A DNA stretch of 64,000 nucleotides from Candidatus Omnitrophota bacterium (GTDB lineage: Bacteria > Omnitrophota > Gorgyraeia > Zapsychrales > Fredricksoniimonadaceae): NCBI GenBank assembly GCA_002753465.1, contig PEAF01000003.1, forward strand, positions 13,551 to 77,550, written 5' to 3'. Positions 6,813-15,503 of the stretch are shown piece by piece. The notes below the pieces were generated by a model, which saw only the letters and a list, made by a program, of their open reading frames with translations, did not search any database and was not told the origin of the DNA. Positions within the stretch are counted from its first letter, which is position 1. Each line of letters begins with the position of its first letter. Made by a program: the position numbers and the translations under genes.

Positions 6813-8030
6813 TTAGTAATTCTGTTCAAATTCCAATTTTCCGCGATTGTCAAAACCTTTGCGTTTGACCTTTACACCAGCTGCATATGAATCTATATAA
6901 GCAAGATCACCTTTTTCGTGAAATATTCTCGTTTCACCATCGATCTTGCCGTTCACGTAATTCTCTTCGCTTAACAACTCACCTGTTTGAAAGAATGACT
7001 TTGAAGGGCCGGATTGAATGCCGTTAACGATCTCCCACTCCTGTTTTACACCACCGTTAGGAAAATGCTCGCGCATCTTTCCGTTCTGGCGACCTTTGTC
7101 GTAGGTAACTTCCATCCACAAAGACCCCGTATCCTTATATTCGCGTGCCAGACCCTGCTTCTCACCGGATTTATAGGCCCAATCTAGCCATAATTTCCCA
7201 TTAGGGTAGTACTCTTTGCAAGGCCCGTCTTTCTGGCCCTGTTTATAATAGCACTCACTTTTGATGTTGCTGTTCTGAAAATATTCTTTGACCAGACCGT
7301 TGTACTGATTCTCGATATAATCAGCTTCAAGTAAAAGGATCCCGTTCTTGCTGAATTTCTTACCGACGCCGGAAATATCGCCGTCACGGAATGTTAATGA
7401 CCACTCCTCCTTGCCATTATCATAATATGTTCTTGAGTTGCCCGATTTTTGACCGTTCTCATAATTCCAGATAGCATATAAAGAGCCGTTGTCTTTAAAT
7501 TCTTTAGCTACGCCATTTAACTCATTGTCCCGGTAGTGTACTTCACTCGTAAGAACACCACTGGTGTTGTATTCACGGCTTGTCCCATTGAGCTGCCCTT
7601 CGGTGAACTCAAGCGTATATTTCAAAACCCCGTTATCATAGAAATATTTGCAAATCCCGTCGAGATTATCATACTTGTAGTTTTCTATATTTTTCTGATT
7701 ACCATTCTCGAAAAATTCTTTACTTAAGCCGTGCTGGAGGCCATTAACATAGAACTTTTCAATAAAGAGAGTTGCATCGCTATAGTACGATTTATAAGGC
7801 CCTTCCAGTAAACCATCCTTATAAGCGCCGACAGTAAGGATCTTGCCATCTGAGTAATATTCACGGAAGGTACCATTAAGCTTGTTGTTAAGGTAAGTTT
7901 TTTCTGTTTTGACACGTCCGTCATCAAAGAGCTCTTTGACGACGCCATCAGGAAATCCCTGGGCTTGTGCGTAACAGGTAGAAAATAGAATGGAAATAAT
8001 GAGAATGAATCTTTTCAAAAGAAACCTCAT
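6813..8030 (-). CDS. secreted MORN-variant (YwqK-like) repeat protein
   Basis: Signal peptide MRFLLKRFILIISILFSTCYAQA. It is followed by about 15-16 consecutive ~24-aa repeats of the form xGxxkEYYxNGxxxxExxYxxGxx. Confidence 0.75.
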   Translation of the reverse strand: MRFLLKRFILIISILFSTCYAQAQGFPDGVVKELFDDGRVKTEKTYLNNKLNGTFREYYSDGKILTVGAYKDGLLEGPYKSYYSDATLFIEKFYVNGLQHGLSKEFFENGNQKNIENYKYDNLDGICKYFYDNGVLKYTLEFTEGQLNGTSREYNTSGVLTSEVHYRDNELNGVAKEFKDNGSLYAIWNYENGQKSGNSRTYYDNGKEEWSLTFRDGDISGVGKKFSKNGILLLEADYIENQYNGLVKEYFQNSNIKSECYYKQGQKDGPCKEYYPNGKLWLDWAYKSGEKQGLAREYKDTGSLWMEVTYDKGRQNGKMREHFPNGGVKQEWEIVNGIQSGPSKSFFQTGELLSEENYVNGKIDGETRIFHEKGDLAYIDSYAAGVKVKRKGFDNRGKLEFEQNY

Positions 8031-8076
8031 TAAGGAATAATAATTTTATATATAGTATACGTAGTAAGAAATATTC

Positions 8077-9045
8077 TCAAGAAAGACTTATGAATTTCTT
8101 ATTGATCATGATTTTAAGATCAGCACCGCAGGAAATTTTATGGGTACTTCCGGTCTGTTCGGCAAGAACTTCGATCAATGAAACATGTTTTAAGGATAAA
8201 CCACCCTGGCCCCCGGCAATACGTTTCGCCGCTTCGCGCAGAAGCATCCGGCGCATTGATCTGGGCAGCATTTTCCACTCGCTAAGCTGAATTTGGACCT
8301 TCCCCCTGCTTTGAACAACTACTTTAGGCCAAATTTGATTAAGTTCTTCAGCCAACACATCATAATCAATGGCGGCATTAACGGCTAGTTCGGCAAGTTT
8401 TTCAGTAATGGCAGGTGTAAAATTCCTGGAAATATACGGGATCAACGCATGGCGGATCTTGTTACGCAGAAAAATATCCTGTCTGTTACTGGGGTCTTCT
8501 ATATGCTTGGCCTTGATCTGGACCATGAATTTTTCTAAGGCAGAACGCCTTGTGTTCAGTAATGGCCTTAGAAAAAGCACGCCGTTAATTTCTCTGGCCG
8601 GCAGAATAGACCTTAAGCCTGAAAGTCCTGTGCCTCTGATGATCCTCATTAAAACAGTTTCAGCCAGGTCATCCTGTGTGTGCGCAAGGATGACGGCATC
8701 AGCGCTCAATCTTCCGGCGACTCTAAAGAAGAAATCAAAGCGTTGCTCCCGGGCAAATTCTTCCGTAGAAATGCCTTTAGCGCATTTCTTATGATTTTTC
8801 TCTGTAATAAAAACAAAACCCAATTCTGCCGCTATCCTGGATACGAAATGAGCATCCTTTGATGAACCCGGACGTAAAGCATGATCATAATGAACAACAA
8901 TGATCTCGATGGCAAGGTTATGCTTGATGCGGTTCAAAAGATGCAACAAAGCAATTGAATCAAGCCCGCCGGATACGCCAACCAGCACTTTAGAAGCGCG
9001 CGGAATGATCGTTTGATCAAGCATGTCTTCGGGAGTTGTTACCAT
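8077..9045 (-). CDS. tilS: tRNA(Ile)-lysidine synthase
   Basis: PP-loop VGVSGGLDSIALLHLL, HYDHALR, and 322 aa length. Confidence 0.9.
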   Translation of the reverse strand: MVTTPEDMLDQTIIPRASKVLVGVSGGLDSIALLHLLNRIKHNLAIEIIVVHYDHALRPGSSKDAHFVSRIAAELGFVFITEKNHKKCAKGISTEEFAREQRFDFFFRVAGRLSADAVILAHTQDDLAETVLMRIIRGTGLSGLRSILPAREINGVLFLRPLLNTRRSALEKFMVQIKAKHIEDPSNRQDIFLRNKIRHALIPYISRNFTPAITEKLAELAVNAAIDYDVLAEELNQIWPKVVVQSRGKVQIQLSEWKMLPRSMRRMLLREAAKRIAGGQGGLSLKHVSLIEVLAEQTGSTHKISCGADLKIMINKKFISLS

Positions 9046-9572
9046 TCGCCTTGAATGCCGCGCATTTCACGTCGCGCTTCCTGGTACGCCGACCTGAGTT
9101 TGTCGGCATATTTCATATTGGGAGGGACTAGTTTTAAATCAGCATAGCCGGCGCGGATCAGTTCAGCATTCAATAATTCACCTGAAGGAAGTATCACATA
9201 GGCCAGAATATTACCGTCGTTATCTCGTCGCTGGGTATCAAATTCAAGACGAACGTATTTGCCTTCAGCTAGTTTCTGTGTAAAACGAAAGGCCTCAAGC
9301 GCCAGCGGTGTTGTCGGATCAGTATCCGGAATGACGAATCCGTTTTCATCACGTTTTACATCCTGGTATTTAGGAGACTTGGAACGTTTGAGCCCGATCA
9401 GGGATATCTTTTCATCATTTTCGAGAAGAATGCGATCTATGGCTATGATCTGGGAGATACGGATATTTTGGTATTTGACAGATTGTTCAAGTAAAGGGTT
9501 TAAATCACCGGCAAAAGAGAGGGATGTCGACACCGAAAAAGTTAGAAAAAGTATAGTTAAGAATTTCTTCAT
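9039..9572 (-). CDS. secreted staphylococcal-nuclease-fold (SNase/OB) protein with a degenerate active site
   Basis: Signal peptide MKKFLTILFLTFSVSTSLSFA. SNase-like blocks EAFRFTQKLAEGKYVRLEFD, DNDGNILAYVILPSGELLNAELIRAGYA. The Ca/catalytic positions are not conserved (ISLIGLKRSK in place of RLxxxDxPE, and DNDGN in place of DxYGR). Confidence 0.7.
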   Translation of the reverse strand: MKKFLTILFLTFSVSTSLSFAGDLNPLLEQSVKYQNIRISQIIAIDRILLENDEKISLIGLKRSKSPKYQDVKRDENGFVIPDTDPTTPLALEAFRFTQKLAEGKYVRLEFDTQRRDNDGNILAYVILPSGELLNAELIRAGYADLKLVPPNMKYADKLRSAYQEARREMRGIQGEW

Positions 9573-9683
9573 AATTTTTTATTATAGCAGGATTTATCAA
9601 TAAAGACGTTTAAAAATGGAGCTTTACATAGAAATGATACAGGCGGGGCCGATCGACATTATGTCCTATATATACAAAAAAAG

Positions 9684-9757
9684 TGCCGAGGGAGAGATTC
9701 GAACTCTCGCCCCTACGGGTATGAACCGTATGCTCTAGCCAACTGAGCTACCTCGGC
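9684..9757 (-). tRNA. tRNA-Met (anticodon CAU), 74 nt, CCA not encoded
   Basis: Minus-strand sequence GCCGAGG TA GCTC AGTTGGCTA GAGC A TACGG TTCATAC CCGTA GGGGC GAGAG TTCGAAT CTCTC CCTCGGC A folds as a canonical cloverleaf. The anticodon loop is UUCAUAC. A T7 run follows the 3' end. Confidence 0.85.
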
Positions 9758-9800
9758 AAAATCTTTTCACAGAACATTTATAAGCCAGAAATGATGCGGA

Positions 9801-9829
9801 ATTATAAGATAAACTTCTATGAAATTCAA
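9801..9829 (-). promoter_or_regulatory. predicted sigma70-type promoter upstream of the tRNA
   Basis: Minus strand reads TTGAAT - 17 nt - TATAAT, about 40 nt upstream of the tRNA 5' end. Confidence 0.4.
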
Positions 9830-9837
9830 GAAGGAAT

Positions 9838-10143
9838 TTATTTAACAAAAAAGATGATGAACAGCAGCGCAAGAATAACAACGAAAGCGGCAATATAAAA
9901 ATCATTGTAAGACAGAAGGTCCTGCACACGTTCTTTCATTGTATAAGGGAACTTTACAGTTTCCGCCGTGATGTTGCCGGAATTCCTTAATGACAGTATA
10001 TCTTCACGTTTAAACCGTACGTATTGTCCGGCAATACGGTATGCCTGAAGTTTCTTTTCGTCGGAAAGTGACATCAATTTACCTTCACTGATGCCAAGGA
10101 TCTGAGCTGCTTCGCGTACGGTTACATACGGGCTTGTCGTCAT
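9838..10143 (-). CDS. tail-anchored membrane protein with an N-terminal excisionase/MerR-type HTH (HTH_17-like)
   Basis: N-terminal HTH VTVREAAQILGISEGKLMSLSDEKKLQAYRIAGQYVRFKREDI. C-terminal TM FYIAAFVVILALLFIIFFVK. ATGA overlap with the upstream bactofilin gene. Confidence 0.6.
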   Translation of the reverse strand: MTTSPYVTVREAAQILGISEGKLMSLSDEKKLQAYRIAGQYVRFKREDILSLRNSGNITAETVKFPYTMKERVQDLLSYNDFYIAAFVVILALLFIIFFVK

Positions 10144-10685
10144 TTAGAAGCTCCTGTGGCCGCCCAATGATCGATCTGGGCACGCTCAAACTTAGTATGA
10201 TCACCTTCCTGAACAAAAGGTATTTTGCCTGCACGAACCAATTCCCAGATAACTCCTTCTTCGATCTCTAGGTAGACGGCCAATTCTTTGATATTGAACC
10301 AGTCACCTGTCGGCGCATCGTTTAATGTCATATGGCACAGCCCCTGAAACACAGCCCCTTCAACAATATTTAATTTGGGTGCATGCAGATCGCCGATAAG
10401 TACCGCTGTTGGCATAAGGGTCAGGAGCTTTGTGGCATGGACATTGCCTTTGACCTTACCGGCAATGACAACATAATCACCGGTGATATTGGCTTCAACG
10501 CAAGCACGTCCGCCGACAGTCAGTGAGCCTTTAACATCTAAATTGCCAGAATACTTCCCGTTGATCCTTAGGTCAACAGGTTCTTTGAATGACAGTGTGC
10601 CATTCATTTCAGCATTAAGCTCAATAACGTTCGTTACCGGACTGGACGTATTTGGTTTGATCGGTTTCTTTTCCCCAAAAACCAT
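10140..10685 (-). CDS. bactofilin (DUF583) fused to a C-terminal excisionase-type HTH domain
   Basis: Bactofilin beta-helix repeats INGKYSGNLDVKGSLTVGGRACVEANITGDYVVIAGKVKGNVHATKLLTLMPTAVLIGDLHAPKLNIVEGAVFQG, then WFNIKELAVYLEIEEGVIWELVRAGKIPFVQEGDHTKFERAQIDHW. An AGGAGG SD precedes the ATG. Confidence 0.75.
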   Translation of the reverse strand: MVFGEKKPIKPNTSSPVTNVIELNAEMNGTLSFKEPVDLRINGKYSGNLDVKGSLTVGGRACVEANITGDYVVIAGKVKGNVHATKLLTLMPTAVLIGDLHAPKLNIVEGAVFQGLCHMTLNDAPTGDWFNIKELAVYLEIEEGVIWELVRAGKIPFVQEGDHTKFERAQIDHWAATGASK

Positions 10686-10712
10686 GAAACGCCTCCTGTG
10701 GATGACTTGATT

Positions 10713-10741
10713 CTTATAACAAAATGTTCTTTTGACGTCAA
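10713..10741 (-). promoter_or_regulatory. predicted sigma70-type promoter for the bactofilin-HTH pair
   Basis: Minus strand reads TTGACG - 17 nt - TATAAG in the 66-nt gap after tsaD. The -35 lies inside the palindrome TTTGACGTCAAA. Confidence 0.4.
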
Positions 10742-10751
10742 ATCAATAAGG

Positions 10752-11726
10752 TCAACGTTTTTGGGCGTAGGCCAAACCGGCGACCATGGCCGCATTGTCC
10801 ATGCATAGTGACATGGACGGAAAACTAACCAGTATGCCACTTTTGGCTGCTAATGTGTTCAGGCGCTCCCTTAATCCGGAGTTGGCAGCAACACCTCCGC
10901 CAACCAGCAATGTGCTGGACTTTCGTTTTAAGCACGCCTTTATACTTTTCTCCGCCAAAACTGATATGACGCTTTCCTGAAAAGCTGCCGCTACTTTATT
11001 AATTGAATAGCCTTCTGTGCCTGCATATTTCTGTGTGTGGTATAAAACTGCAGTTTTAACGCCGCTGAAACTGAAATCATGCGTTCCTTCAAGATTGGCT
11101 TTCGGAAAACGAAGCTCATTCTCACCGACGGAGCGTGCCAATTTATCGATCACAGGTCCACCGGGATATCCTAAATTAAGGATGCGCGCCACTTTATCAT
11201 AAGCTTCACCGGCGGCATCATCCCGTGTTTGTCCTATAACACCGAATGTATTGAAGTCTTTAATATTGAAAAGACTTGAATGACCACCCGAAACCACCAA
11301 TCCGATAGCAGGCAGTTCAAGTTCCTTGTAGATCGTTCGAAATCGTGAAGACCCTTTTTCGACCAGATAATTGGCGTAAATATGCGCATGGATATGATTA
11401 ACATGGATCAGGGGTTTTTTAAGGGCATACGCCATAGAATGCGCGAATGTGATACCGACCAGCAATGACCCGATCAACCCAGGATTTCGTGTAACCGCCA
11501 CAGCATCAATGTCGCTTATCTTAAGGCCCGCATCTTCCAGGGCTTTAGCTGTAACAATGTTGATATATTCTAATTGACGCCTTGAGGCGATCTCAGGAAT
11601 AATACCGCCGAATTTCTGATGTTCTTTAAGACTTGTGGCAACAACATTGGAAAGCACTTCCCTCCCGTCACGGACAATGCTGGCTGAAGTTTCGTCGCAG
11701 GATGTTTCAATGCCGAGGATATTCAT
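10752..11726 (-). CDS. tsaD: tRNA N6-adenosine threonylcarbamoyltransferase
   Basis: MNILGIETSCDETSASIV, HIHAHIYA, VVSGGHS, LLVGGGVAAN. Confidence 0.95.
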   Translation of the reverse strand: MNILGIETSCDETSASIVRDGREVLSNVVATSLKEHQKFGGIIPEIASRRQLEYINIVTAKALEDAGLKISDIDAVAVTRNPGLIGSLLVGITFAHSMAYALKKPLIHVNHIHAHIYANYLVEKGSSRFRTIYKELELPAIGLVVSGGHSSLFNIKDFNTFGVIGQTRDDAAGEAYDKVARILNLGYPGGPVIDKLARSVGENELRFPKANLEGTHDFSFSGVKTAVLYHTQKYAGTEGYSINKVAAAFQESVISVLAEKSIKACLKRKSSTLLVGGGVAANSGLRERLNTLAAKSGILVSFPSMSLCMDNAAMVAGLAYAQKR

Positions 11727-12583
11727 TTCTGAGCTTTAATATAATCTTTTAAAGAAAGGAATTCATAGCCCTGTTCTTTATACTTACGTATCTCTTCTTG
11801 TACGATCTGCAGGGTAAGCGCCCTATCATGTCCGATCATCAAAACAAAACCCTTGCTGCGGGCGATTTTTACGCCATCTTCAAAGGCACGTTCTATGGCA
11901 GCACGTTCATTACGGTTATCAAGAAAAACGTCTCTACGGGTAAAGCGAATGCCGGTTTCTTGAGCGACTTCGGCGCAAATGGAATGAACGCTTGTGACGC
12001 TATCCAGAAAGAAAAGGCCGCGTTTTTTAAGTTCAGTGATGATTGTCGTCATCATCGGTTTATCTTCTGTCGCTTTAGAGCCCATATGATTGTTAACGCC
12101 AATAACTCCCGGGTGCTCATCGAGGACCTTTTTAAGAAGCTTTAAGACCTCTTTTTGAGACATCCACGTGGTAAGGATATAGCCTCGCGGGTAAGGGTCC
12201 TTATTATTGTGCGGCTCTAAAGGTAAATGCAGAATTGGTTCCTGCCCTGCTGCAATGGCACACGCGATCACATCTTTAGAGTACTGAAGGCCAGGTAAAA
12301 CAGCCGGAGCTACCGGTACTCCAAAAGATTCCAGATACTTGCAATGTGACCGGTTAAAGCCCCAATCATCAAGAACGATCGCGATCTTGCCTTGCCCTTG
12401 TTTTGTCGGCACTGGTTTGACCAGCGGCTTCTTTTCAGGCTTGACGATTGGCGGTTTAGTAACAGGCGGCAGCGTCTGTTTCTTATTGAGTAAAATATAT
12501 CCTTGAATGCAAACAATAGCGATCAATACCCATATTAAGGGCATCAACCAGGATGCATTCTTTTTACCATTTGGAGCAGGCAT
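11723..12583 (-). CDS. divergent polysaccharide deacetylase (YibQ family)
   Basis: N-terminal TM, Pro/Lys-rich linker, then IAIVLDDWGFN...NNHMGSKATED...MIGHDR. Confidence 0.8.
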   Translation of the reverse strand: MPAPNGKKNASWLMPLIWVLIAIVCIQGYILLNKKQTLPPVTKPPIVKPEKKPLVKPVPTKQGQGKIAIVLDDWGFNRSHCKYLESFGVPVAPAVLPGLQYSKDVIACAIAAGQEPILHLPLEPHNNKDPYPRGYILTTWMSQKEVLKLLKKVLDEHPGVIGVNNHMGSKATEDKPMMTTIITELKKRGLFFLDSVTSVHSICAEVAQETGIRFTRRDVFLDNRNERAAIERAFEDGVKIARSKGFVLMIGHDRALTLQIVQEEIRKYKEQGYEFLSLKDYIKAQK

Positions 12584-12592
12584 GAAGTCTTC

Positions 12593-14074
12593 TTATTTTT
12601 CGATTGTTTGTAATGTTTTATAGACACGAATGCCTTTTATTACACTTATGGCACTTTGTATCTGATTGTCATCAACCATACGTTTCTTTGTCATCTCTTC
12701 ACGCTTACGCTTTTCAACGACATTGGGATCATCAATACCTTCTAATTCAAGTTTCTCAAAGATCTCTTTGGCAGCTTTGTCCTTTTTAACCTTTTTATCA
12801 GTCTTTAAAGAGTCCTTTGTTTCGGCCTCTTCATCATTATCGCCTGCGGATTCATCGCCTTTGGGATAAATACGTTCAACGACAATATCCGGAACAATGC
12901 CTATTTCATGGATACAGACACCTGAAGGCGTAAAATATTTACTGGTCGTTAAACGAAGGCCTGACCCATCAGGAAGCGGTATAACAGATTGAACAGAGCC
13001 TTTCCCGTAAGATTTTGCCCCTAAAATAACCGCACGCTTATTATCCTTAAGAGCTCCGGCAAGGATCTCACTCCCTGAAGCGCTGCCTTCATTGATCATA
13101 AGGACGATCGGCCAGTCAGCGAATTCATTCTTATTGTTATGTGAAATGCTGATCGTGTTCTGTGCAGGATGACGTCCTTTAGTAGAAACAATCGTTTTTC
13201 CTGAAGGAAGGAACATTTCACTGATGTCTATCGCCACGTTTAAAAGGCCGCCGGGATTATTACGCACGTCAAGGATAAGGGCGGTAGCCCCCTCTTCTTT
13301 GAGCTTAAGAAGGGCTTTGTGCATTTGAGTGTATGAATCTTCCCTGAATTCAACAAAACGTAAGTAGGCGATATTGTCTGTGATTATATGCGGATCTTTA
13401 ATGTCCTGAACATGAATGATCTCCCGCGTGATCTCAAATTCATGGATCTTGAATTCAGACTCACGTAAGATGGTGATGTGGACTTTGCTCCCGGGTTCAC
13501 CACGCAATTTCTTCACGGCTTGGCTTAAGGTCATATCACGCGTTAATTCTTTTTCGATCTTAACGATCTTATCGCCGGCCTTCAGTCCTACTTTCCACGC
13601 AGGGGTATCTTCAATAGGTGTCACGACCGTCAAAAGCCCGTCACGGATAGATATTTCAATGCCTAACCCGCCGAATTTTCCCTGCGTATCTGTTTTAAGC
13701 TCATCATAATCTTCAGGTGTTAAGAACTGACTGTGAGGATCAAGGGAATTCAGCATGCCGGTCAAAGCCCCATAGATCACATCTTTAGGCTTCTTTTCCT
13801 CAACGTATTCACTCATGATGGTCGAGAGCGTGTAGCTGAAAAGTTCTACCTGAGAATAAAGGTCTTCGGGGCCTTTGTTGGTAGAATTTTTTTCGACCTT
13901 GGTTTGTTCTCCGGCAGGCACATTGATTTCTGCTGGAGTCACAACAGCCTTGGGGTCGATCGCAGGAGCCGCCTTGGTCGAAGTGTTCTTCTCGGATTGA
14001 GACCCTGCAAAAGTCGTGAAGCACACGATTCCAATGCTCAGAAAGAGAATGGATAAAAGGACCTTCTTAAGCAT
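12593..14074 (-). CDS. ctp: carboxy-terminal processing protease (S41, Ctp/Prc) with a long charged C-terminal tail
   Basis: PDZ (GLKAGDKIVKI), then S41 core LILDVRNNPGGLL, INEGSASGSEILAGAL, SYGKGSVQ. I prefer the ATG at 14074 ([12 protein letters not shown]) because an AAGGAG lies 8 nt upstream. The track ORF starts at 14101. Confidence 0.9.
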   Translation of the reverse strand: MLKKVLLSILFLSIGIVCFTTFAGSQSEKNTSTKAAPAIDPKAVVTPAEINVPAGEQTKVEKNSTNKGPEDLYSQVELFSYTLSTIMSEYVEEKKPKDVIYGALTGMLNSLDPHSQFLTPEDYDELKTDTQGKFGGLGIEISIRDGLLTVVTPIEDTPAWKVGLKAGDKIVKIEKELTRDMTLSQAVKKLRGEPGSKVHITILRESEFKIHEFEITREIIHVQDIKDPHIITDNIAYLRFVEFREDSYTQMHKALLKLKEEGATALILDVRNNPGGLLNVAIDISEMFLPSGKTIVSTKGRHPAQNTISISHNNKNEFADWPIVLMINEGSASGSEILAGALKDNKRAVILGAKSYGKGSVQSVIPLPDGSGLRLTTSKYFTPSGVCIHEIGIVPDIVVERIYPKGDESAGDNDEEAETKDSLKTDKKVKKDKAAKEIFEKLELEGIDDPNVVEKRKREEMTKKRMVDDNQIQSAISVIKGIRVYKTLQTIEK

Positions 14075-15503
14075 GATGCAATCTCCTTGTGAAAATATCA
14101 TTAAGTTTTTTAGGGTTCGCCTTGCCCTGAGTTTTTTTCATGGCTTGTCCGACAAGAAATCCCAGCGCCGTTGTCTTTCCTGAAAGAATTTCTTGTACGG
14201 TCTTCTGGTTCTGGGCTAATAGTTCATCGACGATCTTTTCTAATGCGGCATCGTCAGACACCTGGGCGATACCCTTCTCTGCGATCAACACATCAGCATC
14301 TTTAGCTGTCAGGACTATATCACTTAAAAGGTCTTTAGCGGCGATATTGCTGATCGTCCCGTCTTCAACGCGTGTAATGAGCTTAACAAGATTCAACGGC
14401 GACAAGTGAAGTTGTGTCAGTCCCAGTTTCCGTTCATTCATTTCTTTTAAGATCGGCCCGTTGATCCAGTTCGCGATCTTTTTAGTATCAGGATAACTTT
14501 TAGCACATGTTTCAAAAAAATCTGCCAGCGACTGGTCCTGAATGAGTATCCCTGCATCATATGTTGAAAGTTTGTACGCTGATACAAATCTTGACAATTT
14601 GGCCTGCGGCAATTCAGGCAGGCTTTGACGCATATTTTCAATAACATCACTCTTGATAATAAAAGGGACCAGATCAGGTTCCGGGAAGTATCGATAATCA
14701 TGCGCCTGCTCTTTACTGCGCATAGAAACGGTACGCCCCTTGGCTTCATCCCATAACAGTGTTTCCTGAACAATGCTTCCGCCGGAAAGAATAACCGTTG
14801 TTTGACGAGCTACTTCAAAATCAATGGCACGCTTGACAGCGCTGAAAGAGTTCAGGTTTTTAAGTTCAGCCTTTGTCCCAAGTTTAATCTGGCCAAGAGG
14901 GCGAATAGAAACGTTCGCATCACAGCGTAATGAGCCCTTTTCCATATCGCAATCGGAAACATTAAGATATGAAAGGATCAGCTTGAGCCCGGTTAAATAG
15001 TCATAAGCTTCTTGTGAAGAGCGAAGATCTGGCTCAGAAACGATCTCAATGAGCGGCGTTCCCGTTCGATTGTAATCGACCAAAGTGCAGGCATTGACCG
15101 TATCGTGAATAAGCTTTCCAGCATCTTCCTCAAGATGGGCGCGCGTAATGCCGATCCGCTTTTCTTTTCCGTCGACAAGGATATCAAGGAACCCTAGTTT
15201 GGCGATCGGAAAGTCAAATTGAGATATTTGATACCCTTTCGGGAGATCCGGATAAAAATAATTCTTACGGTCAAACTTGACGAAGGAATTGATCGAGCAG
15301 TTTAGCGCAAGTCCGACCTTCATACCGTACTCAAGGACCCGACGGTTTAAAACAGGCAGGGTCCCCGGTAAACCGAGACATACAGGACATACGTTCGTAT
15401 TTGGCGCACTGCCAAACTCATTAAGGCAACCGCAGAATATCTTTGTTTTGGTTTTAAGCTGAAGATGAACTTCAAGCCCGATAACTGTCTCAAAAGTTGT
15501 CAT
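14067..15503 (-). CDS. gatB: Asp/Glu-tRNA amidotransferase subunit B
   Basis: 478 aa, [23 protein letters not shown]. Confidence 0.97.

Follow-up and report, generated by a model that had tools for sequence, protein, structure and literature searches.

Bactofilins are usually plain scaffolds that take their specificity from separate clients. The locus described here raises the question of what such a protein does when a domain of the nucleic-acid-binding type sits inside the polymer subunit itself. It lies in a 64,000-nucleotide (nt) stretch of contig PEAF01000003.1 from a Candidatus Omnitrophota bacterium, which at its full length is referred to below as the window. Two genes make up the locus: gene A, coding for a bactofilin fused to a winged helix-turn-helix (HTH) domain, and gene B, coding for a second winged-helix protein that is tail-anchored. 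A first-pass annotation, made from the letters of the window, had suggested that the pair anchors or positions DNA at the envelope, and we consider such anchoring a plausible function for it. The pair is real, and its parts are arranged as follows (window coordinates).

10140..10685, minus strand: gene A, bactofilin-winged helix fusion, 181 amino acids (aa)
10638..10685, minus strand: A residues 1-16, disordered N-terminal tail with motif M-A/V-F-x-x-K/R-K, candidate membrane-targeting sequence
10335..10628, minus strand: A residues 20-117, bactofilin beta-helix core with the polymerisation-interface residue Phe113
10302..10334, minus strand: A residues 118-128, flexible linker
10155..10301, minus strand: A residues 129-177, acidic winged helix of the HTH_17 / MerR-Xis type, signature Y-L-E-[IV]-[ED]
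9838..10143, minus strand: gene B, tail-anchored winged-helix protein, 101 aa
9988..10128, minus strand: B residues 6-52, basic HTH_17 winged helix
9895..9945, minus strand: B residues 67-83, conserved juxtamembrane segment Y-T-x-x-E-R-x-R-D-F-x-x-Y-N-D-F-Y
9847..9903, minus strand: B residues 81-99, C-terminal transmembrane helix with 2 residues beyond it

Domain searches bore out the reading of A as a bactofilin core followed by an HTH_17-type winged helix, with all scores above the curated cutoffs. Residues 20-117 matched Pfam Bactofilin PF04519 (E 2e-23, 82.8 bits vs. a cutoff of 27.9), and residues 129-177 matched HTH_17 PF12728 (E 1.7e-8, 35 bits vs. 27) as well as TIGR01764 'excise' (32.8 bits vs. 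28.8). The AlphaFold2 model of A, built on an alignment of 120 sequences, had a mean predicted local distance difference test (pLDDT) score of 80. It comprises a disordered tail at residues 1-16 (pLDDT below 50), a beta-helix at 19-117 (pLDDT 87-95) and a winged helix at 129-178, joined by a low-confidence linker whose pLDDT falls below 50 at residues 122-126 and whose length differs among relatives. Foldseek placed the core with the bactofilins of T. thermophilus (TtBac, 6rib) and C. crescentus (BacA, 2n3d) at probability 1.00 and target-normalised template modelling scores of 0.78-0.83, and a profile search returned the same two proteins (6ria and 2n3d) at E ~1e-9. Phe113 of A, kept in at least 90% of the 120 relatives, aligns with F105 of TtBac and F130 of BacA; the F130R mutation in BacA abolishes polymerisation (PMC12448750). 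These features suggest that A polymerises through its bactofilin core. In the N-terminal tail, position 3 is F, L or I in 80/81 relatives and position 6 is K or R in 78/81. The family motif, M-A-F-x-x-[KR]-[KE]-..-K, carries its hydrophobic residue at position 3 where the published bactofilin membrane-targeting consensus, MFSKKKK (PMC12448750), has it at position 2. Resembling that consensus, the tail is a candidate membrane-targeting sequence.

Protein B was likewise confirmed as an N-terminal HTH with a single C-terminal transmembrane helix. Its residues 6-52 matched HTH_17 (E 1e-9, 39 bits vs. a cutoff of 27) and scored 37.4 bits against TIGR01764 (cutoff 28.8). In the AlphaFold2 model (mean pLDDT 75) a winged helix at 6-54 is followed by a linker of about 25 residues, a short helix at 69-79 and a C-terminal helix at 81-99, the last predicted with a pLDDT of about 94. 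The most hydrophobic 19-residue window of B reaches a Kyte-Doolittle mean of 2.5 over the 81 relatives; we assign B as tail-anchored because in 80/81 of them this terminal hydrophobic helix is followed by just 0-3 residues. The juxtamembrane segment, in which Y67, E71, R72, D75, N80, D81, F82 and Y83 are invariant or nearly so, is as conserved as the HTH of B and may serve as a second candidate site of contact with A.

The models of both proteins show the alpha1-alpha2-beta1-beta2-alpha3 winged-helix fold. Foldseek matched both domains to 4j2n, 6ama, 8dgl and 5i44 with a root-mean-square deviation of 1.0-2.3 Å over about 50 residues. For A the matches included BldC-DNA, the RdfS excisionase, Pukovnik Xis, RacA-DNA and CbpM, a protein-binding MerR-like fold; the best ones for B were Pukovnik Xis, BldC-DNA and RacA-DNA. 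Direct BLASTP of the A HTH against the B HTH gave no alignment, and profile-profile comparison with hhalign gave a probability of 97.8%, by which the two winged helices are related to one another. B was also considered as a relative of MamR and rejected as such, the NCBIfam match (E 0.04, 14 bits vs. a cutoff of 100) being not significant.

How widely the pairing holds was surveyed from both sides. A pattern scan with one genome per species found an A relative in 149 species, from which 80 loci were kept; together with the window these are the 81 relatives used throughout. B follows A directly in 81/81 of these loci. Stop and start codons, which in the window overlap as ATGA at 10140-10143, share 4 nt in 45/81 loci and 1 nt in 6 more, so that an overlap is kept in 51; the other gaps measure at most 120 nt. 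The translational coupling read from the window is upheld. A metagenome search started from B yielded 414 relatives, of which 80 loci were kept. Full-length A stands directly upstream of B in 78/78 informative loci, and in the remaining 2/80 the contig ends within 50 nt of B. In database searches A had 382 relatives at E up to 1e-3; among the 120 listed, nearly all carry both domains, and the named ones are Omnitrophota/Omnitrophica save one record labelled Elusimicrobia. B had 87 relatives, all about 100 aa long. An exhaustive HMMER search of 1.84 billion representatives added about 25 clusters of full-length fusions with 29-45% identity. Three of these clusters (36-45% identity) lie in unrelated neighbourhoods (A-B-greA-acpS; BatD-TPR-MgtC-A-B-PDZ; SPOR-TPR/PDZ-A-B) and are still paired, each with an HTH_17 protein bearing a C-terminal hydrophobic helix immediately downstream of the fusion. 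A profile of the distant fusions drew 2617 proteins at E up to 1e-10; the top 120 are all two-domain proteins and every named one belongs to Omnitrophota. Because A and B are co-conserved in every informative locus, different neighbourhoods included, they are a conserved chromosomal functional unit, found across the phylum and so far only in Omnitrophota. A lack of co-conservation in relatives, which the first-pass annotation had named as a ground for dropping its reading, is clearly contradicted.

Some records in these surveys deserve separate mention. Many that are titled 'uncultured Planctomycetales bacterium' (binchicken metagenome-assembled genomes (MAGs); loci L004, L018, L023 and others) carry the fusion with the full Omnitrophota-type synteny, as does L009, titled 'Elusimicrobia'; both sets are probably mislabelled taxonomically. 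MAG nDJH2bin18 holds two copies of the syntenic block, L011 (JADFXX010000019) and L021 (JADFXX010000002), whose A proteins are 66% and 55% identical to that of the window, which points to a mixed bin of two organisms and not to paralogues. In L085 (1-6850; Ga0105164_10002154) and L087 (1-6711; ERZ27245622 k141_986312) a conserved cluster, with a MamF/MmsF-like fragment, an HTH_31 gene, Volactin (actin-like), a ParA/MinD-like ATPase with AMPK1_CBM and several unknown genes, ends in a distant bactofilin-HTH_17 fusion that shares about 29% identity with A. The gene after the fusion in L085 codes for a signal-peptide/transmembrane protein, not an HTH-transmembrane partner, and the contig of L087 stops a short way past the fusion. 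The genes may together form a cluster of the cytoskeletal or magnetosome-like kind.

Whether the winged helices are fit to bind DNA was judged from their charge and from residues equivalent to known DNA contacts. Over the 81 relatives the winged helix of A has a mean net charge of -3.9 (range -6 to -1) and that of B a mean of +2.2. Over the aligned segment the values are -4 for A and +3 for B of the window, vs. +5 for BldC and +4 for both Pukovnik Xis and Tn916 Xis. In the recognition helix of A three acidic residues are conserved and no basic one, while B has K21 and K22 there and solved DNA binders have two to three basic residues. The signature of A, Y-L-E-[IV]-[ED]...E-L, is kept in the distant fusions too. 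K/R159, K165 and R168 are conserved in A, and its second wing strand is canonical (K-F-E-R vs. R-V-E-R in Pukovnik Xis). DNA binding by RacA needs K15, R19, R30 and G34, and loss of R19 abolishes it (PMC4914108). The equivalents of these residues, aligned by hand on the confirmed RacA sequence, are listed here.

RacA K15: in B, K21 (K in 59/81; Gly in the window, with K22 adjacent); in A, G/P144
RacA R19: in B, D/S25; in A, E148
RacA R30: in B, R/K36 (79/81); in A, K/R159 (75/81; Gln in the window)
RacA G34: in B, Q40; in A, wing one residue shorter, no equivalent given

B thus retains two of the three basic DNA-contact residues of RacA, the equivalents of K15 and R30, and lacks one for the wing-tip Gly34; A retains just the R30 equivalent. 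DNA binding by A is weakened because its domain is acidic, its recognition helix has no basic residue and the K15 and R19 positions are occupied by G/P and E. Judged by these residues the winged helix of A is unlikely to be a normal DNA reader, and it is no less likely to serve as a protein-protein module. The idea that a DNA-binding module is built directly into the polymer, put forward in the first-pass annotation, is therefore weakened. B is the more credible DNA binder of the two, and a plausible one.

As the best-supported reading, we infer that A and B assemble into a single complex on the cytoplasmic side of the inner membrane, because they are co-translated, are never found apart and carry homologous domains of opposite charge. 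It is also known that bactofilins bind membrane-anchored clients when polymerised, and that a membrane-bound client can supply the membrane anchoring of the bactofilin (PMC12448750). On this basis we tentatively favour a membrane module that tethers DNA to the envelope with B as the DNA contact, a reading that we hold to be possible, at clearly less than an even chance. A would polymerise via its beta-helix, and B, made from the same mRNA, would be held in the membrane by its C-terminal helix. Each protein would present a MerR/Xis-type winged helix to the cytoplasm on a flexible tether. The acidic winged helix of A, its DNA-contact residues lost, would act as a protein-binding adaptor, most likely for the basic winged helix of B. 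Many copies of the latter along the polymer could contact DNA multivalently, and the nucleoid or a specific chromosomal region would be tied to the envelope.

Several observations weigh against DNA tethering through B. The position of RacA R19 is Asp or Ser in B, and in the window that of K15 is Gly. No candidate binding site is conserved near the operon, where only the -35 and -10 boxes are kept among the 81 upstream regions. The neighbouring genes give no hint of chromosome biology, and in divergent contexts PDZ and SPOR proteins adjoin the pair, hinting at the envelope. The tail motif of A is one residue off the MFSKKKK consensus and is not found in the distant fusions, which have Lys-rich N-terminal tails instead. 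The contact between A and B is itself only something that we infer. In mutual information with average product correction, calculated on 112 A-B-TsaD triples (effective number about 67), the A-B maximum of 0.44 was not above the phylogeny controls of 0.50 (A-TsaD) and 0.44 (B-TsaD). The missing R19 equivalent and the PDZ, TPR and SPOR neighbours, together with the S41/PDZ protease and YibQ-type deacetylase of the main synteny, also suit a scaffold made by protein contacts only. Here neither winged helix would be on DNA, B would be a tail-anchored adaptor or client, and an HTH-HTH or HTH-beta-helix contact would be the coupling device. Such a scaffold would serve the envelope or cell shape, like most studied bactofilins. 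It has a parallel in RodZ, which binds MreB through its HTH. The acidic winged helix of A without DNA-contact residues agrees with it, as does the presence of CbpM (3ucs) among the structural matches; bactofilins, moreover, typically recruit bitopic membrane proteins by their cytoplasmic regions (PMC12448750). It leaves aside, however, that the winged helix of B is basic, with a strongly conserved surface including R10, K21/K22, R36, R43, K45 and R46, that its best structural matches are DNA-bound complexes, and that B has essentially no periplasmic part and cannot itself act on the cell wall. We regard this protein-only arrangement as somewhat unlikely.

The opposite charges of the two domains would also suit masking. 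B could be a membrane-held transcription factor whose DNA face is covered by the DNA-mimicking acidic winged helix of A, in which case the polymer state or envelope stress would set its access to DNA and possibly autoregulate the operon. A precedent is BacR of Bacillus, which is bound by bactofilins and loses DNA binding (PMC13649987), and the operon has a conserved promoter of its own. B is, though, permanently anchored in the membrane and would need proteolytic release, for which no evidence was found; apart from the -35 and -10 boxes, nothing operator-like is conserved around the promoter, the palindrome there not being conserved, and B is not a DUF4004 protein. This kind of switch is unlikely in our judgement. 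A further possibility is that both winged helices bind DNA and the polymer is a DNA-binding filament, with B tethering the second copy. Bactofilin filaments are non-polar, and the C-terminal winged helices of A would be paired at each tail-to-tail interface. The scores of the A domain above the HTH_17 and TIGR01764 cutoffs, its Xis-like wing strand and the conserved K/R159, K165 and R168 speak for this, and the multivalency of a filament could offset weak affinity of the single domain. The negative charge in all 81 relatives, the acidic recognition helix, the G/P and E at the K15 and R19 positions and the Gln at that of R30 in the window speak against it, and we consider it distinctly improbable. 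Doubtful too is the bolder proposal of a membrane-bound DNA-binding lattice, made of a bactofilin filament with its winged helices paired at tail-to-tail interfaces and of the tail-anchored partner, that positions or segregates the nucleoid. If true, Omnitrophota would possess a kinetochore-like device with no relation to ParABS, and the principle of RacA, RocS and RicO would have been reinvented independently in another phylum. Next to no weight, finally, is given to an excisionase, mobile-element or defence component. Many of the proteins carry the automatic name 'excisionase family DNA binding protein'. Their domains match TIGR01764, PHROG excisionase families and the PADLOC/NCBIfam model of MAD1, a protein of the MADS defence system. 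Yet the PHROG and PADLOC matches span just the HTH of about 50 residues, MAD1 of NCBIfam scores only 33.1 and 17.8 bits vs. a cutoff of 80, no integrase, phage or defence genes lie nearby, and a housekeeping synteny is kept to about 50% identity across the phylum. With matches at the HTH level only, MAD1 far below its cutoff and a housekeeping context, such a role is effectively refuted. An excision role had already been called unlikely from the absence of phage and integrase genes, and this judgement stands.

Compared with the canonical bactofilins BacA of C. crescentus and TtBac of T. thermophilus, A has the same core fold, interface Phe and disordered basic-hydrophobic tail, and here too a bitopic membrane protein is encoded nearby or recruited as a client. 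Unlike these proteins, which end in short unstructured C-terminal tails, A continues through a flexible linker into a folded winged helix of 50 residues, and it is translationally coupled to a partner of its own in which this fold recurs. In BacNOP-PadC-ParABS of Myxococcus, a protein whose fold is of the DNA-binding type connects a bactofilin polymer to the organisation of the chromosome (PMC5703909). PadC, however, is a ParB-like CTPase adaptor that recruits ParA, and the Myxococcus bactofilins have neither a fused domain nor a tail-anchored partner. BacR (YhbD, DUF4004) of B. subtilis shares an operon with the bactofilins BacE and BacF, which bind it so that it is recruited to the membrane and its DNA binding is lost (PMC13649987). 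An HTH protein in one operon with a bactofilin is the point of likeness; BacR is a soluble dimeric regulator, whereas here one HTH is fused to the bactofilin, the other is membrane-integral and the family is HTH_17. Neither A nor B matched DUF4004 in a Pfam search at E up to 1.

A precedent for bridging origin DNA to the membrane with a winged helix, an oligomerisation domain and a membrane anchor is given by RacA-DivIVA (B. subtilis), RocS (S. pneumoniae) and RicO (S. aureus), to which the tether proposed here comes closest in function. Oligomerisation of RocS is required for its membrane binding, and a transmembrane domain can stand in for its amphipathic helix. The A-B pair shares the trio of MerR-type winged helix, self-association and membrane attachment, with DNA binding being a prediction here, and both winged helices have RacA among their best structural matches. 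Sequence homology to RacA is insignificant (E 0.46 with the A-HTH profile; absent with the B-HTH profile at E up to 10). The differences lie in the layout. The C-terminal transmembrane helix of B is a functional equivalent only of the amphipathic helix or of DivIVA. In the known proteins a coiled coil follows the winged helix, while B has a linker, a short helix and the transmembrane helix, and A a beta-helix instead. Here the bactofilin would provide self-association, and the likelier DNA binder is a different polypeptide. Outside Firmicutes the RacA/RocS/RicO family is not known. Pukovnik Xis (4j2n), Tn916 Xis, BldC and RdfS have the winged-helix fold and Pfam family in common with both HTHs and are their best sequence and structure matches. 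They are small, soluble and basic (+4 to +5) and act with integrases or as regulators, whereas here one copy is acidic and polymer-fused and the other membrane-anchored. The names under which these proteins stand in public databases are 'polymer-forming cytoskeletal protein' and 'excisionase family DNA binding protein', and our results call for caution in reading the latter label literally; in one of the two copies DNA binding has very probably been lost. In the literature covered, which left some subscription journals outside, no paper joins a bactofilin with an excisionase or with Omnitrophota, and no bactofilin-HTH fusion is described. A bactofilin that has a winged helix of its own and is always paired with a tail-anchored protein is thus new to that literature, its function being drawn from inference only. 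The arrangement is fixed in about 160 informative loci and several gene contexts, and this architecture with its strict conservation would surprise a specialist. The pair offers a route to asking how cytoskeletal polymers couple to the nucleoid or to membrane-held regulators, and a first specific lead into the cell biology of an uncultivated phylum about which almost nothing is known; its components are small and easy to express heterologously.

The expression signals proposed for the operon were compared among the upstream regions of the relatives. They are located as follows.

10736..10741, minus strand: -35 box TTGACG of the A-B operon promoter
10713..10718, minus strand: -10 box TATAAG, with TGT just before it (extended -10-like TTTGTTATAAG)
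10731..10742, no strand: palindrome TTTGACGTCAAA, which spans the -35 box; not conserved
10692..10697, minus strand: Shine-Dalgarno sequence AGGAGG, 6 nt before the ATG of A

The two boxes are separated by a 17-nt spacer. Because about 25 closer relatives have the arrangement TTGAC[GCT]-N17-TATAAx ahead of A, with TGT directly preceding the -10 box, the comparison supports the promoter as real, in agreement with the first-pass annotation. The exact TGTTATAA occurs at most 250 nt upstream of A in 18 loci, vs. a background of 0.023 per kb in the same loci. A generic promoter scan did not list this promoter; its rule demands T as the last base of the -10 box. The Shine-Dalgarno sequence of A was found as described, and an AGGAG lies within the 3' end of gene A, ahead of the ATG of B. 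The palindrome, which had been put forward as a binding site, was rejected as an operator: TTTGACGTCAAA is present in 1/81 upstream regions and its core TGACGTCA in 2/81. It probably represents the -35 box plus chance symmetry. Directly after the stop of B, at 9801-9829 on the minus strand, a near-consensus promoter-like site, TTGAAT-17-TATAAT, was observed, which presumably serves the downstream tRNA. The scan of the window found no terminator-like hairpin between B and the tRNA.

In the window the pair is preceded by gatA, gatB, an S41/PDZ protease, a YibQ-type deacetylase and tsaD, and followed by tRNA(CAT), an SNase-like nuclease, tilS, a MORN-repeat protein, ftsH and folP; none of these neighbours is an integrase, phage or defence gene. 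Some of them are placed as follows.

12593-14101: S41/PDZ protease
10752-11726: tsaD
9683-9757, minus strand: tRNA with anticodon CAT, called tRNA-Met by ARAGORN
8077-9045: tilS

The order S41/PDZ protease-deacetylase-tsaD-A-B-tRNA(CAT)-nuclease-tilS-MORN (6813-14101 in the window; loci L001-L080) is kept down to about 50% protein identity, which is unusually stable for genes that are functionally unrelated. PDZ proteins stand beside the pair in L083 (6767-7768) and L086 (3912-5569), the latter also with a SPOR-domain protein, and this recurring envelope/proteolysis neighbourhood could bear on function. The tRNA(CAT) sits between tsaD, for t6A synthesis, and tilS, for lysidine on tRNA-Ile2 (CAU), a position that most syntenic relatives preserve; its true identity may be tRNA-Ile2, not tRNA-Met. 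Over the whole window (1-64000), gene-like open reading frames of at least 150 aa lie nearly all on the minus strand, an extreme coding-strand bias.

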